64,000 nucleotides of DNA from Escherichia phage P896: the sequence record OL451225.1; one strand, written 5' to 3'. The notes below the pieces were generated by a model that saw only the letters and a program-made list of their open reading frames with translations, had not been told where the DNA came from and made no database searches. Both the position numbers and the translations under genes were made by a program. How positions within the stretch are numbered: position 1 is the first letter of the stretch; every line of letters starts with the position of its first letter. Shown one piece after another: positions 1,246 through 43,036 of this stretch.

Positions 1246-3960
1246 TTAAAAATCAAACATATCAAAAAGAGTTGCTTTCTTTTCGTAATCAACCTTTGCA
1301 GCTTCGGAGAAACCTGTTAATGGCTTAACAAAAGTCTTCTGGAACAGTGTGTTGTAGTCCATCCACTGCAGAACCTGGTCACGGATTTCAATCGGGAGTT
1401 CAATCCCAGATGGCCATGCAATCACGGTTTCACCAAACGGGTTGCCGACTTTGAGCGGAAGTACATACACCTTTTCCCCTTCCATGATTTGCGGAACAGT
1501 CTTCAGACCTTTAGTTGCACGCATATATGCAAGCACACCTTTGATATGAGCCGGACACTTAAATCCAGGGAAACCGCCTTCATTATATTTCTGGATGTTG
1601 TTAACCGATGATACACCTGCGATGGTCATGTAGTTAAGCTCATTAAATTCCTTATTGAATTCCTTGAAGTATGTCTGCAGAGATTCTTCACCTTCTTGCA
1701 GCATACGGCGGATACATTCTTTCAGAGCTTTCTGACATGCCTTTGGAGTACTCGACTTTTGAGTTTCCAGACCCATGATTTTCAGTTTCGGAACAGCATA
1801 TCGTGTGCCTTCCATATCGTACACGTTCAACGCATAACGCTTCTTCGCTGTCCAGAATCCACCAACACCCTTCGAACCCAGTGGAGGACATGCAATCGCC
1901 TCACGGTCCATAAACATAAGGTGCTGTTTGTTGTTCATGTATTCAGCCAGCTCACGGAAAGCTTTATCGATTGCCGGTTCCAGACGGTCTTTCGCAAACT
2001 TGTCCATGAAGTCAACCAGGTGGTTTGTATCGCGGAATTTAGATTCACCACCAACCTTTTTAATCAGGTTATCGCACTGGATATAAATGGAGTCAGTGTC
2101 ACCATAGAATACGTAGGTTTCGCCGCTTGTCCCACAGACACTATCGAAGTATTCGTTAACTTTACGCTCAATCCACTGCAATGCAAGTTGTCCGAAAGAT
2201 GTAATCGCGGTTGCATTTCGCAGGTCAAAGTAACGGAACCATATATTGCCCAGAGCGCCATAACAACTGTTGATAAGCAGTTTACGGTTAATCTGTGCGG
2301 TCATGCCTGCAACTTCTTCCATCTGCGCTTTGTACAGCATACCATTTAGGACTGTTTGATTCAGACCATGCAGGGCCGTTTTCATATTGTCATCAAAGTC
2401 ATGACGATAATCAACTTCAGGCTCGGTTGTACCAGTTCCTGGATTACGCAGAGCTTCCTTAATCAGTTCACCATTACGTTGAGCCGCAAGCATATAGCCT
2501 TTGTGTTCTTTACGCTGATTAAACACCTTGGTGACTTCTGTCGGAATAATACCCGCAACATCTTTAAAATACATCATACCATTTGGAGCACAACTAAATG
2601 TATCAGATGGACGGTCAGCAGTTCCTGCAATGTATTCGTACATCGGCGCTGGCGCAAATGACCCGGCAATCGTTTCTGGACTGATGTTAATCTGTCGGAT
2701 AATGCTTGGATACAGAGATGTTAAGTCACAGCTCATTACATATTTGTATGCGTTCGGAATCGGTTCCTTAACAAATGCACCAGGGAACGATTGGCGAACA
2801 TGTGATTTGGTTTCCGGAATGACTTTGTTTTGAGTCTTCAGGCTGTTAAAGATAATCGCATCCCAAGTTTTGATTGGGCTGAATACAGACTGAATCTGCA
2901 TTTTTGCATAATAACCCATTGACTGGCTCAGGTTAATAAACTGCCGCTTACGGTCAATCTGCACAACACGATAAACGTCGATGATGTTATAAGAAATATA
3001 CCGCTGGTGATTTGATTCACGCAGTTTAGAAATCGGGCCATCATACGGGAGTTTACCAACACCCAGTTCAGATTCCGCAACATAATCCAACGAATAAGAC
3101 GGTTGGTTTGTGAAGCTGAACTTTTTATACAGGTCCAGATAATCCAGAACAGAGATACCCAGAATCTGAATGATTTCTTGTTCTTCACCAAAGCCGTTGT
3201 TAATGACTTTAACTTTTGTACGACGATGTGGGCTCAGACGTTTTGCCGTAGCTTCACCAAATACATTTTTAAGGCGGTTGTAGATATATGGAATATCAAA
3301 CTTCTCGATGTTCCAACCAGTTAACATAACCGGAGTTTTCTCGTTCCAGAATACCAAATACTGCTGGAGCATTTCTTCTTCTGAATCGAAAGCCATATAA
3401 ACAATTTTTTCCAGGATTTCTTCCGGGACTTCATCACCACCATCTTCCTGCAGCTTAGCAGCAATATCAATAGACCATTGCTCCACAGTGGCGTATGGTG
3501 AGCCCAAAAGGTCAAAGACATAGAATTTATCGTCTACCGAATCATAGTGCGTCAGGGCGTCAATAGGGTGACGTGCTTCAGACGGCTCAGGGAACCCATC
3601 AGGAGATGTCACCTCGATATCGAAGTTAGCCACACGGATTTTACTTGAATCGTATTTGATTTCGTGCGGGTAACGGTCGGACAAGTATGCGAGTTTAAAG
3701 TCGTCCATGCCCATGGCTTCGAGGCCCATGTCATTCATTCGCTTCATCCACTGGGATGCATCACGCATGGAATCGAATTCTTTTTTCACACAACCTTTAT
3801 TATAGATGTCTGTATACTTTGCAGCTTGGTCTTCACGGGCGTGCATAAACAAGCATGGAGCATAAGGGATTTCACGAACACGTTCATGACCATTCTTGTC
3901 AATATATCGTTCGTGTAGGTTGTCACCGATTTGTTCGATAGTTAAATAAAATTCTTGCAT
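1246..3960 (-). CDS. 43: DNA polymerase (family B), gp43
   Basis: 904-aa ORF with N-terminus MQEFYLTIEQIGDNLHERYID close to recalled T4 gp43; exonuclease and polymerase motifs (YGDTDS) present; ATG start with AAGGAAA RBS. Confidence 0.97.
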   Translation of the reverse strand: MQEFYLTIEQIGDNLHERYIDKNGHERVREIPYAPCLFMHAREDQAAKYTDIYNKGCVKKEFDSMRDASQWMKRMNDMGLEAMGMDDFKLAYLSDRYPHEIKYDSSKIRVANFDIEVTSPDGFPEPSEARHPIDALTHYDSVDDKFYVFDLLGSPYATVEQWSIDIAAKLQEDGGDEVPEEILEKIVYMAFDSEEEMLQQYLVFWNEKTPVMLTGWNIEKFDIPYIYNRLKNVFGEATAKRLSPHRRTKVKVINNGFGEEQEIIQILGISVLDYLDLYKKFSFTNQPSYSLDYVAESELGVGKLPYDGPISKLRESNHQRYISYNIIDVYRVVQIDRKRQFINLSQSMGYYAKMQIQSVFSPIKTWDAIIFNSLKTQNKVIPETKSHVRQSFPGAFVKEPIPNAYKYVMSCDLTSLYPSIIRQINISPETIAGSFAPAPMYEYIAGTADRPSDTFSCAPNGMMYFKDVAGIIPTEVTKVFNQRKEHKGYMLAAQRNGELIKEALRNPGTGTTEPEVDYRHDFDDNMKTALHGLNQTVLNGMLYKAQMEEVAGMTAQINRKLLINSCYGALGNIWFRYFDLRNATAITSFGQLALQWIERKVNEYFDSVCGTSGETYVFYGDTDSIYIQCDNLIKKVGGESKFRDTNHLVDFMDKFAKDRLEPAIDKAFRELAEYMNNKQHLMFMDREAIACPPLGSKGVGGFWTAKKRYALNVYDMEGTRYAVPKLKIMGLETQKSSTPKACQKALKECIRRMLQEGEESLQTYFKEFNKEFNELNYMTIAGVSSVNNIQKYNEGGFPGFKCPAHIKGVLAYMRATKGLKTVPQIMEGEKVYVLPLKVGNPFGETVIAWPSGIELPIEIRDQVLQWMDYNTLFQKTFVKPLTGFSEAAKVDYEKKATLFDMFDF

Positions 3961-38502: not shown

Positions 38503-39462
38503 TTATTTTGTGAAAGGACGAATTAAATGTTGGTTAGCCTTAAAGCGTTTAACATAGTCTTCGCGACCCAGGGTGTTGTACATATTAACCACTTCCTGGT
38601 AATGTTCCCAGGCATACTCGCGGAACCATCCAGAAGTAATGGAGGTACAGACTTTTTCCAGCGCAATATGGAAGCTCACAGATGGAGAGATATTGAACTC
38701 ATTAGGAACCTGCGAACGCTCCAGAGCGAGCACACATGCTTCTTCATAAACCCCTGCCAGTTTAATAATCTCAGGGAGTGCTTCAAATTTTTCACGCGAG
38801 GTCATGACTTCTGAATCATCCTTCATATAAAACTTATATGCAGGCTTATCAGCAAGCGCCACAGCCTCGTGGATGGAGTCATGGTCAAGGGTGTAGATTG
38901 TATCATTAAAGAAAGTTTTCTTGCCCACGTCTAGTTTAGGGTGACTGTATGACAGTGTTTCTGCCTGACGCTGCAGCATGATTTTCTGCAGTTCATCATT
39001 AAGAACAATACCCTTATTGCGAAGGTAATTAATATGACTCATGGTCTTCAGGAAGAATGGATTGTTCTTCAGGTAACGATGAGACAATTTAATCGCCAGA
39101 CAAATATCAGGCGTCGCCCAATAGAAACCTGTAAGACGGTCTTTCTTAATATGATTTTCAGCGTATTTCAAGAGACGATAACTTGAGGTGAAATCTTCGT
39201 CTTGAAGCTCACCAGTAATTTCTCGTACGTTGGTCAGGGCACGGACAATATAAGCTTCAAAATAGGTTTCTTTGCCATTGTACATACATTTAAAAGCTTG
39301 GACATCAGGGTTATCCACAGGAACATGAGCACCGAACATACGTGCTTTAAAGTGGTTCCAAGAACCCTGGTCAGCGATAAAGTCCCAATCAGAGTTTTCA
39401 ATTTTCTGACTTTCAATCAGACCAGCGTTATGTAATGCACGAGAACCAATAACTAACATCAT
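38503..39462 (-). CDS. hypothetical protein, 319 aa
   Basis: ORF track; ATG with GAGGAAAAT RBS; no firm motif. Confidence 0.6.
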   Translation of the reverse strand: MMLVIGSRALHNAGLIESQKIENSDWDFIADQGSWNHFKARMFGAHVPVDNPDVQAFKCMYNGKETYFEAYIVRALTNVREITGELQDEDFTSSYRLLKYAENHIKKDRLTGFYWATPDICLAIKLSHRYLKNNPFFLKTMSHINYLRNKGIVLNDELQKIMLQRQAETLSYSHPKLDVGKKTFFNDTIYTLDHDSIHEAVALADKPAYKFYMKDDSEVMTSREKFEALPEIIKLAGVYEEACVLALERSQVPNEFNISPSVSFHIALEKVCTSITSGWFREYAWEHYQEVVNMYNTLGREDYVKRFKANQHLIRPFTK

Positions 39463-39475
39463 AATATTTTCCTCA

Positions 39476-39643
39476 TTAGTAAAGACGAGTTACTTCATAT
39501 TTTCCAAGTGCCGATTTTTTCGCTTCAATTCGTGAGGCAGCAAGATTGGCGGCCTCTAGTGAAGAAAATTGAACCACTTGAGAAGTATTCTGTCTTACTC
39601 CACCTTGCGGGTGAGTGACAAAAACAATAAGAACATTATACAT
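39476..39643 (-). CDS. possible small protein, 55 aa
   Basis: Below ORF-track cutoff; ATG with GAGGAAAAT RBS filling the gap between two genes. Confidence 0.35.
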   Translation of the reverse strand: MYNVLIVFVTHPQGGVRQNTSQVVQFSSLEAANLAASRIEAKKSALGKYEVTRLY

Positions 39644-39653
39644 AATATTTTCC

Positions 39654-39854
39654 TCAAATAATACCGTATGCGTAAATATCTCTTTTAATGCAGGAAACTA
39701 CTTCTTCCAGAGAATCACAAACACGTTCTGTGACGCCTGCGTAATCACCACTGATGGTTACTTTAATGCCATCAGAAACTTCCTGGAGATTAACCTCCAG
39801 TTGGTTGACTTTGGCTTCGTTCAGAACTTTGATTAATTCGTTTGCGATAGACAT
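39654..39854 (-). CDS. hypothetical protein, 66 aa
   Basis: ORF track. Confidence 0.45.
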   Translation of the reverse strand: MSIANELIKVLNEAKVNQLEVNLQEVSDGIKVTISGDYAGVTERVCDSLEEVVSCIKRDIYAYGII

Positions 39855-39918
39855 TTTTATTCTCCTGTTCTGATAACGTGATTGTCATCAGTTGATAGGA
39901 GTATAGTAACACAGTTTT

Positions 39919-40263
39919 TTAGACTTGTATACTGCTTCTACAATATTCTAAAAATAATTTATCGTTGTCTACCGTATCCCAACGACGCCAAGATGGATTC
40001 CAGACCAGAGCGTTGTCACCGCAATCATTGAGCTTAAAATGGTCGTAGTACATAGCTATATGTCTGGTTTCGTCACCAGAGAACCCCAGTATAGGCTCAC
40101 CGTGAGTATGATACATATGATGATGCATTGAGAGGTCGCATTTGTAAAACATCTCACGTTTACCACGAACGAACAAGAAGGCTTGCCCATTCATATAGAA
40201 TTCTTTATCTGTTTTCAAAAGATATTTGAATACCGAATCTTTATGCATAATTCCTCCTACCAC
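39919..40263 (-). CDS. hypothetical His-rich protein, 114 aa
   Basis: ORF track; MHHHMYHTHGE segment. Confidence 0.5.
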   Translation of the reverse strand: MVGGIMHKDSVFKYLLKTDKEFYMNGQAFLFVRGKREMFYKCDLSMHHHMYHTHGEPILGFSGDETRHIAMYYDHFKLNDCGDNALVWNPSWRRWDTVDNDKLFLEYCRSSIQV

Positions 40264-40278
40264 ATCCTTGTGATTAAA

Positions 40279-40506
40279 TTATTTTCCTAACGAAATGCGA
40301 GTAGGTTTTTTACCGAAATATTCTTCATAGGAACCATCTAAACGACCCGCTTTAGACCGACAATACGAATCATACTTTTTGTAATAAGCCAACTCGGTAT
40401 TGTAACGTGGATGTCTATCAGCCATAATAATACTTAACGGCCAACCTTTGGCGTAATCACGAAGACCATTTATTTTACGAATATATCTTTTCTTTAATTT
40501 TAACAT
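40279..40506 (-). CDS. hypothetical basic protein, 75 aa
   Basis: ORF track. Confidence 0.45.
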   Translation of the reverse strand: MLKLKKRYIRKINGLRDYAKGWPLSIIMADRHPRYNTELAYYKKYDSYCRSKAGRLDGSYEEYFGKKPTRISLGK

Positions 40507-40733
40507 GAACTTGGGTACCAGATTTTACCATCGGCACTAGCAACGAAGGTGCGACCAGCTTCTTCCCCATAACAAGAGCTGTTCAACCAGTCTTCAAGAC
40601 GGACTTCGCCGTCATAATCATCAAGCTCAACACCAAAATCTTGAGCAGAAGCCATATCTTTTACTTTCTTATACAGTGCAGCCAGTTCAAGGGCGGCTTT
40701 TTCTAATTCAGCACGTTCAACAGCAGTAGTCAT
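40500..40733 (-). CDS. small acidic protein, member 1 of a W-x-SS-x-x-C C-terminal paralog array (ends KIWYPSSC)
   Basis: ORF track; N-terminal helix and C-terminal Cys as last residue. Confidence 0.5.
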   Translation of the reverse strand: MTTAVERAELEKAALELAALYKKVKDMASAQDFGVELDDYDGEVRLEDWLNSSCYGEEAGRTFVASADGKIWYPSSC

Positions 40734-40742
40734 TTTATCACC

Positions 40743-40970
40743 TTAGCAAGACATAGAGGAGTTAAACCAGAAACCTTTACCATCTGGGATACCGTAATCA
40801 CCACGAATCCAGTCATACTCTTCGTATTCTGGACAACCCGCAGGAATATATCGTTGAAGACTGTCAGCATACACATGAAAGTATTCACCAGTTTTATCGG
40901 CCAGTTGTTCACCTTCACAGATTAGTGCACGGATTTGGTCTTCAATTTCTTTAACAGTTTTAGCAGTCAT
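40743..40970 (-). CDS. small acidic protein, member 2 of the paralog array (ends GFWFNSSMSC)
   Basis: ORF track. Confidence 0.5.
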   Translation of the reverse strand: MTAKTVKEIEDQIRALICEGEQLADKTGEYFHVYADSLQRYIPAGCPEYEEYDWIRGDYGIPDGKGFWFNSSMSC

Positions 40971-40979
40971 TTTATTTCC

Positions 40980-41177
40980 TTAGCATTCATAAGAGGAGGA
41001 CACCCAGGAGCCACCCGTAATTGTAATACAGCCATTGTAAATCGTGATATGACGGTCCAGATGGTTTTCACCTTCGATATAGATATCAGCTTCTTCACGC
41101 TCTTCTTTACAAATCTGGATAACGTTTTCAATAGCTGCCGCGGCAGTACGGATTGCACAATCTAGTTCACGAGACAT
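40980..41177 (-). CDS. small acidic protein, member 3 of the paralog array (ends GGSWVSSSYEC)
   Basis: ORF track. Confidence 0.5.
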   Translation of the reverse strand: MSRELDCAIRTAAAAIENVIQICKEEREEADIYIEGENHLDRHITIYNGCITITGGSWVSSSYEC

Positions 41178-41186
41178 AATAATTCC

Positions 41187-41468
41187 TTAACATTCAGCAG
41201 AAGAGGACACCCAACCACCATTTTCCAGGTCAGTTGTATAGTCATGAGTATTAACAATAGCCCATTCAGGATGACCATGTTCTTCCCAATGAGCAAGGTC
41301 AGCTTTCAGGGCACCAGGAGAATAATAGTCACCGCCCATACCGCGAGCAGGGTATATATTAAAATGAGTCTCATATTTGTCTGCAATTTCCTCGGCACGA
41401 CGAATAGCTTTATGGATGTCATTTACTGCGTTAGCCAGTTCTTTATTTTTACGGTAATCATTCATCAT
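41187..41468 (-). CDS. small acidic protein, member 4 of the paralog array (ends GGWVSSSAEC)
   Basis: ORF track. Confidence 0.5.
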   Translation of the reverse strand: MMNDYRKNKELANAVNDIHKAIRRAEEIADKYETHFNIYPARGMGGDYYSPGALKADLAHWEEHGHPEWAIVNTHDYTTDLENGGWVSSSAEC

Positions 41469-41477
41469 AACGTTTCC

Positions 41478-41768
41478 TTAGCACATTGCCGAAGAGGAGA
41501 CCCAAGCACCAACTGTAACGACACCGTTTTCAACTTCACCGCCGTTGTTTTCAATTTCATTTTTAAACCACTGGGAGCATTCATAACCGACAGGATAATA
41601 TGTACGGCCCGAACCATAATCACCGGTACCAAATTGGATACCATATTCATCTGCGATTTCTTCACAGTGTTTTTCAATTTCAGAGGTCTTATTTAGAAGA
41701 GAATAGATAGCTTTTTCTGCAGATTTCTCATCATAATACTTGGGGATAGCAATTTCAATTTTATTCAT
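41478..41768 (-). CDS. small acidic protein, member 5 of the paralog array (ends GAWVSSSAMC)
   Basis: ORF track. Confidence 0.5.
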   Translation of the reverse strand: MNKIEIAIPKYYDEKSAEKAIYSLLNKTSEIEKHCEEIADEYGIQFGTGDYGSGRTYYPVGYECSQWFKNEIENNGGEVENGVVTVGAWVSSSAMC

Positions 41769-43011: not shown

Positions 43012-43036
43012 TTAGGGGGCAAAGCCCCCTTTTATC

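Follow-up and report, generated by a model that had tools for sequence, protein, structure and literature searches.

A conserved C-terminal Ser-Ser-Cys tag on small phage proteins encoded beside a predicted nucleotidyltransferase

Why should five consecutive small proteins of one phage end in the same few residues, and what might such an ending serve? The question is posed by a gene array in Escherichia phage P896 (sequence record OL451225.1), from which a stretch of 64,000 nucleotides, here called the window, was analyzed. The window matches the T4-like Shigella phage SP18 (Gaprivervirus, Tevenvirinae) at 99.3% identity. On the minus strand of the window, the array is flanked by the e/nudE/e.2 genes on one side and by the e.4/e.6/tRNA genes on the other. 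All five gene products are small, acidic and folded proteins of the cytoplasm, and they belong to a phage-specific family that carries the C-terminal tag W-x-x-S-S-(x-x)-C. The most informative feature of the locus is the strict linkage of this family to a second gene, which encodes an enzyme-like protein with the domains of unknown function (DUF) DUF7277 and DUF7275 and lies outside the region covered by an earlier note on this DNA. Together the two gene families form a phage-specific module with tight gene linkage and a tag that is conserved at the level of protein.

The five genes and their shared tail

The array consists of the following features.

41478..41768, minus strand: paralog 1, 96 amino acids, 'GDYGSGRTYYP' subtype, ending GAWVSSSAMC; tail W89-V-S-S-S-A-M-C96 at 41481-41504
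41187..41468, minus strand: paralog 2, 93 amino acids, 'GMGGDYYSPG' subtype, ending GGWVSSSAEC; tail WVSSSAEC at 41190-41213
40980..41177, minus strand: paralog 3, 65 amino acids, short 'MSRELDCA' subtype, phrog_4882, ending GSWVSSSYEC; tail WVSSSYEC at 40983-41006
40743..40970, minus strand: paralog 4, 75 amino acids, ending GFWFNSSMSC; tail WFNSSMSC at 40746-40769
40500..40733, minus strand: paralog 5, 77 amino acids, double-motif subtype, ending KIWYPSSC; terminal W72-Y-P-S-S-C77 at 40503-40520
41469-41477, 41178-41186, 40971-40979 and 40734-40742 (all within 40734..41477), minus strand: four intergenic junctions of 9 nucleotides each, read from the sequence

The list of open reading frames (ORFs) agrees in coordinates, sizes and C-termini with the earlier description of five consecutive genes for proteins of 65 to 96 residues ending in W-x-x-S-S-(x-x)-Cys. 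That description had also given the tail the form G-[GA]-W-[VF]. The cysteine end stands, the invariant core is instead W-x-x-S-S...C, and paralog 5 has the shorter form W-x-x-S-S-C. Paralog 5 carries a second copy of the motif inside the protein (W49-L-N-S-S-C54 at 40572-40589), and the terminal cysteine of paralog 2 is the only one in that protein. The SP18 counterparts are, in order, gp141, gp140, gp139, an unnumbered coding sequence and gp137, all annotated as hypothetical.

Four of the five proteins match phrog_899 (paralog 1, E = 5e-23; paralog 2, E = 2e-20; paralog 4, E = 3.5e-15; paralog 5, E = 7e-10). Paralog 3 matches phrog_4882 with E = 3e-36 and phrog_899 at only 0.055, and both PHROGs are of unknown function. 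A family hidden Markov model (HMM) built from 178 members matches all five window ORFs with E values of 1e-24 to 3e-4 (paralog 1, 1e-23; paralog 3, 2e-4). When 1.84 billion representative proteins were searched exhaustively with the family profile (E <= 1e-3), 177 clusters at 50% identity were returned, nearly all of proteins with 70 to 120 residues, and the match extends to the last residue. The C-terminus proposed to be conserved is kept in these homologs: cysteine is the final residue in 172 of the 183 retrieved proteins, and about nine carry one extra residue. The tryptophan, the two serines and the cysteine are conserved at 99%, 99%, 96% and 99% in the family alignment, and outside the tail the proteins diverge to about 20-35% identity. 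Other elements of the consensus are a helix motif, EAE-IAD, and a loop, YGMGG-YYP. Members tend to be acidic, with a median isoelectric point of 4.46. The tail cysteine is the only cysteine in 87 of the 178 members, about half, which excludes an intramolecular disulfide or a zinc site as a general explanation.

The same tail is found on other protein bodies, in proteins of about 145 residues that end in DWDSSSMYC or AWCSSSMxC and lack the YGMGG loop. The tail thus behaves like a portable tag, which bears out the suggestion that it is a shared one. The AlphaFold2 model of the 96-residue paralog 1 (predicted local distance difference test, pLDDT, 88.6) is a compact helix plus β-sheet domain, with the N-terminal helix confidently predicted at residues 14-42. 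The small proteins had no match in Pfam, NCBIfam or PADLOC; a profile search against the sequences of the Protein Data Bank (PDB) gave nothing, and no fold similarity to any PDB chain was detected.

Ralstonia phage RSP15 (L130:2584-2787 and 3096-3368) has three residues after the tail cysteine (...RWRSSTAICNGY and ...KWNASAGMCGYL), and a free C-terminal cysteine is therefore not absolute.

Repeated gene ends could in principle belong to the nucleic acid and not to the protein, as a signal for translational coupling, a structured RNA or the boundary of a recombination cassette. A direct repeat of 46 nucleotides with 76% identity does span the junctions, and the serine codons are pyrimidine-rich and stand immediately before a Shine-Dalgarno sequence. 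However, the 164 distinct tail DNA sequences use all six serine codons at the invariant serines (TCN/AGY = 126/38 and 119/37), both TGC and TGT for the cysteine, and each of the three stop codons. Folding of the junction RNAs gave no stable structure, the shuffled controls being the more stable, and the tail is kept in phages with quite different downstream sequence and gene order. The codon diversity refutes a DNA or RNA by-product, the junction folding agrees, and we give this explanation practically no weight. Conservation of the tail as protein, as the earlier note had held, produces the junction repeat as its consequence and not the reverse.

Among the Dhaka and Gapriver orthologs, the ratios of nonsynonymous to synonymous substitution (dN/dS) for paralogs 1 to 5 are 0.19, 0.31, 0.15, 0.13 and 0.05. 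These values between close relatives identify the five ORFs as genuine coding genes, and the family HMM matches concur. Individual subtypes (GDYGSGRTYYP, GMGG-YY, the 65-residue type, FWFNSSMSC, and the type with two motifs) are seen again in Mosigvirus and in the distant phages Marfa (Klebsiella), ukendt (Phapecoctavirus) and phiPsa374 (Pseudomonas). For the double-motif subtype of paralog 5, the carriers are Marfa, L005, ukendt and X1. Each paralog represents a subfamily that is old, conserved in its own right and under purifying selection, and the array is not the diversifying family that had been suggested. Anti-defence or host interaction is possible as the role of the small proteins; PADLOC returned no hits.

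Linkage to the DUF7277-DUF7275 gene

The partner gene lies about 1 kb downstream of the array on the same strand.

38503..39462, minus strand: partner gene, 319 amino acids, DUF7277 (residues 2-101) and DUF7275 (residues 120-305), predicted Pol-β-fold nucleotidyltransferase

Context look-ups for two distant family members found the same DUF7277-DUF7275 gene just downstream. The association was measured from both sides. On the tag side, loci were retrieved with a back-translated DNA pattern of the tag; wherever downstream sequence existed, those carrying family genes had the enzyme gene downstream, directly adjacent in divergent phages. On the enzyme side, the sample comprised phiPsa374, ukendt and 80 IMG/VR loci found only through the enzyme (down to 40% identity and including jumbo phages of about 350 kb). 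One to five tag genes adjoin the enzyme gene in 74 of these 82 loci, mostly within 3 kb upstream and on the same strand. With the loci thus chosen independently of the motif, the tail is found in 192 of the 862 ORFs that lie on the same strand no more than 3 kb upstream of the enzyme gene and in 5 of 1750 ORFs elsewhere, which rules out chance as the source of the pattern. Clustering of the neighbors places the tag family in about 20 of 24 lineage groups. The runner-up family is found in at most 5, and no neighbor family other than the tag genes is co-conserved with the enzyme gene across the 24 groups.

Mutually unrelated groups of phages show the linkage: T4-like phages, Otagovirus phiPsa374, Phapecoctavirus ukendt, Ralstonia RSP15, Xanthomonas X1 and the jumbo phages of about 350 kb. 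The enzyme gene is present in at least 731 phage records and in only 5 contigs of metagenome-assembled genomes among 185,579 bacterial and archaeal species genomes. Among the carriers are jumbo phages, coliphages of the therapeutic type (Dhakavirus, Mosigvirus, Phapecoctavirus) and phages that infect Klebsiella, Acinetobacter, Aeromonas or Pseudomonas. Neither family was found in the first 100 kb of T4, a stretch that covers the syntenic e.2-e.3 interval; this absence may explain why the module has so far gone unstudied.

Several loci depart from the common layout. One environmental phage lineage (L080:12771-12917, L116:11984-12424) has the enzyme gene without an adjacent tag gene. The same lineage encodes a protein of about 145 residues ending in GTYAWCSSSMEC, roughly 6 kb from the enzyme gene and on the opposite strand, so the enzyme-tag pair can be separated. 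The tag genes of Xanthomonas phage X1 (L129:4429-4865) lie downstream of the enzyme gene, and the order with the tag genes upstream is thus not absolute. An RNA ligase gene is located directly downstream of the enzyme gene in RSP15 (L130:4395-5417) and two genes upstream of it in Streptomyces phage Annadreamy (L119:2064-2723). These neighbors may hint at an RNA-repair context; in most lineages no such neighbor is seen.

The neighborhood also bears on a peptide-cyclization reading, in which the small proteins resemble ribosomally synthesized and post-translationally modified peptides: a tail serine would become dehydroalanine and the cysteine thiol would add to it, closing a ring like that of lanthionine or aminovinylcysteine (AviCys). 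An S-x-x-C sequence ends four of the five tails, a resemblance of pattern only, and its spacing matches known lanthionine and AviCys-type rings; the serine might be activated by nucleotidylation. Across the 24 lineage groups, however, the conserved neighborhood includes no family of dehydratases, cyclases or flavin decarboxylases. The proteins are folded domains, as modeled for paralog 1, and not leader-core peptides, and the W-x-x-S-S-C end of paralog 5, with the cysteine directly after Ser-Ser, does not fit the ring spacing. We regard cyclization as very improbable.

The enzyme and how it may act on the tail

An alignment of 28 diverse homologs shows that G6, S7, D25 and D27 of the enzyme (GS...DxD) are invariant in all 28 and that position 69 is Glu or Asp in 25. 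This pattern is the Pol-β nucleotidyltransferase signature, motifs I and II plus a third carboxylate. K125, H128, D193-H194-D195, H198, E240-E241 and E248-R249 are also conserved, with many of the invariant residues in the helical C-terminal part, and a clade-specific segment runs K270-V-C272-T-S-I-T-S-G-W-F-R281. Compared by sequence, the invariant K125 and D193/D195 are candidate counterparts of K137 and D152 in the C-terminal motifs III and IV of MenT1, at a different spacing. The AlphaFold2 model of the enzyme (pLDDT 91.8) shows a predicted nucleotidyltransferase fold in which the catalytic motifs are intact. Among solved structures, those closest to it in fold are MenT1/TglT/MenT4 and two enzymes that nucleotidylate hydroxyls, ANT(2'') and LnuA; the last ~120 residues have no structural match. 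A sequence search for solved relatives by phmmer and profile gave only spurious photosystem matches. Pfam scans of the window enzyme and 27 homologs, with E values up to 10, returned DUF7275 and DUF7277 only, with no nucleotidyltransferase family and no DUF1814/AbiEii, and PADLOC gave no AbiE hit.

Jumbo phages carry an RNA-ligase-associated nucleotidyltransferase family, RlaP (PMC7824862). Assignment of the enzyme to that family was rejected on the same Pfam scans.

A sister clade, clade B, consists of shorter relatives of 250 to 263 residues from Streptomyces, Gordonia and Vibrio phages that retain GS...DxD. Their genes have no Cys-tail neighbors and are flanked instead by one to three paralogs of a family ending in ...GYYxSW...EVxPxxKxITxY.

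L119:4630-5322, L120:4454-5657, L128:4114-4479 and L131:2806-3102: clade-B loci, with the enzyme relatives flanked by the small-protein family without the Cys tail

Members of this partner family are homologous between Vibrio phages (E 3e-17) and more weakly so between Vibrio and Streptomyces phages (E 6e-5); clade-B enzymes used as queries retrieved only near-identical loci. Since the sister clade has small-protein partners of its own, the enzyme family as a whole appears to work with small proteins. All 110 clade-A sequences that were compared have C272, S277 and R281, whereas the four clade-B enzymes all have isoleucine at the position of C272 and replacements at S277 and R281. The correlation between C272 and the Cys tail may reflect a single evolutionary split. 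It nevertheless points to the segment KVC272TSITSGWFR as the putative tail-binding site.

We put at a little short of an even chance the proposal that the small proteins engage the DUF7277-DUF7275 nucleotidyltransferase-like enzyme through their tails, as its partners or substrates. From here on we infer a physical interaction, a covalent serine modification, a role for the cysteine and a downstream function. The N-terminal Pol-β-type domain (GS...DxD and E69) would bind nucleoside triphosphate and magnesium, and the helical C-terminal part, including KVC272TSITSGWFR, would dock the tail of the partner. A nucleotidyl group would then pass to one of the two invariant tail serine hydroxyls, which are the candidate modified residues, and the tail cysteine would assist the docking or the chemistry, perhaps against C272. 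Between one and five tagged proteins would share a single enzyme, and their variable bodies would give each of them its own target or role.

That three small polar residues, Ser, Ser and Cys, are so extremely conserved over very great phylogenetic distances suggests a chemical role and not docking alone. Serine O-nucleotidylation is the favored chemistry because structural relatives of the enzyme move nucleotidyl groups to hydroxyls and because the tag is so conserved; it is a tentative assignment that may well prove wrong. The wider picture is put forward with the same reserve. Large virulent phages of Proteobacteria might possess a hitherto unrecognized, tag-directed protein modification system in which a single MenT/ANT-like enzyme covalently nucleotidylates the tag serine, the tag cysteine is set against Cys272, and small acidic effectors are switched on or off during infection; the sister clade of actinophages and vibriophages would do likewise with a different tag family.

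The main rival is a pair of the toxin-antitoxin kind, which we think unlikely. The enzyme would be a MenT-like RNA or tRNA 3'-end nucleotidyltransferase engaged in host shut-off or RNA repair, and the small proteins would either inhibit it non-covalently, as MenA1 does, or adapt its specificity, in both cases by contacts of their long N-terminal helix and tail with its active-site face. The gene order fits the MenA1-MenT1 arrangement of a small upstream protein and an RNA-acting enzyme (PMC10435456), whereas the multiple partners and the tail-centered conservation fit less well. The phage enzyme shares fold similarity with MenT and the Pol-β motifs I and II, but it lacks the DUF1814/AbiEii sequence match of MenAT (AbiE-type) systems and has ~120 additional C-terminal residues without structural match. 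MenT1 has a single partner gene and the phage enzyme one to five; the phage partners are defined by the Ser-Ser...Cys tail, which MenA1 is not known to have, and resemble no PDB chain in fold. The phage module, moreover, belongs to virulent phages and is essentially absent from bacterial genomes.

The tail could also be a recognition tag for something other than the enzyme, such as a host protease, a chaperone, a redox protein, a metal or cofactor, or a packaging signal, with only an indirect link to the enzyme, for instance by common regulation or membership in one pathway. It is common for C-terminal tags to address host machinery, and a lone terminal cysteine beside a tryptophan could bind metal or form a mixed disulfide. 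Internal head protein genes lie in the same general region of SP18. Yet tag and enzyme genes stay together in phage families with hardly any other neighbors in common, C272 of the enzyme tracks the presence of the Cys tail, and the sister clade has different small partners of its own. We consider an unrelated reader of the tail improbable. The idea of an internal head protein was dropped: phage families without relation to T4 carry the module too, and the PHROG matches included none of an internal protein.

Known relatives, significance and neighboring features

Protein-nucleotidylating Pol-β enzymes offer an analogy for the proposed tag nucleotidylation. GlnD acts on PII, GlnE on glutamine synthetase, and MntA on HepT in a type VII toxin-antitoxin system. 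In these systems a hydroxyl side chain of the partner is modified, as would be the case for the Ser-Ser tag; for MntA-HepT the partner gene adjoins as well. GlnD, GlnE and MntA differ in modifying tyrosine and not serine, and their PII and HEPN partners have unrelated folds; a Pfam scan found neither a HEPN (RX4-6H) nor a PII signature in the phage small proteins. ANT(2'') and LnuA act on small molecules, are single-gene resistance determinants and have no sequence similarity to the phage enzyme. The CaaX box, the sortase LPXTG signal and the AviCys-forming S-x-x-C of lanthipeptides are C-terminal processing tags. The phage tag is likewise a short conserved Cys-containing motif on otherwise different proteins; it differs in motif composition, in its cytoplasmic phage context and in having no matching processing enzymes nearby.

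By HMM score the window proteins are members of phrog_899/phrog_4882 and DUF7277/DUF7275, entries that record no function, no tail tag and no pairing; both gene families are annotated only as hypothetical or DUF. A literature search, with many subscription-journal papers outside its reach, found nothing on phrog_899, DUF7275, DUF7277 or such a tag, and nothing relevant on MenT-like phage enzymes, C-terminal cysteine tags or phage AMPylation. The families themselves are already in the catalogues as unknown; what appears undescribed is the tag, its pairing with the enzyme family and the clade-specific switch of partner. The linkage points to a two-part phage system not described before. If the tag is modified, it would represent a new kind of phage-encoded post-translational control and might become a portable tool. 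If the small proteins instead regulate the enzyme, the module would be the first MenT-like pair of toxin-antitoxin style used by virulent phages. Either reading, if true, would assign a function to hundreds of phage 'dark matter' genes, and the conserved tag with its dedicated enzyme makes the hypothesis directly testable.

The junctions and the remaining ORFs complete the description of the locus. Each internal junction consists of TAA, a Shine-Dalgarno-like GGA/GGT and ATG. The start of paralog 1 shares an ATGA overlap with the gene upstream of the array, and the cysteine and stop codons of paralog 5 overlap the ATG of the next gene (TCATGTTAA).

40279-40506, minus strand: basic protein of 75 amino acids, phrog_7065 (function unknown), start codon in the TCATGTTAA overlap with paralog 5
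39476-40263, minus strand: three further small ORFs (114, 66 and 55 amino acids; the 114-residue protein is phrog_9796), between the array and the enzyme gene

The 75-residue phrog_7065 protein is strongly constrained, with a dN/dS of 0.036. No family of this kind recurs beside the enzyme gene across the lineage groups, so the 114-, 66- and 55-residue ORFs, together with the 75-residue one, look like later insertions into the module. Elsewhere in the window, a perfect GC-rich palindromic hairpin (AGGGGGCAAAGCCCCCT, 43014-43030) occupies the short interval that separates the e.6-like gene from the ORF after it; AGGGGGCAAAGCCCCCT looks like a terminator on either strand.

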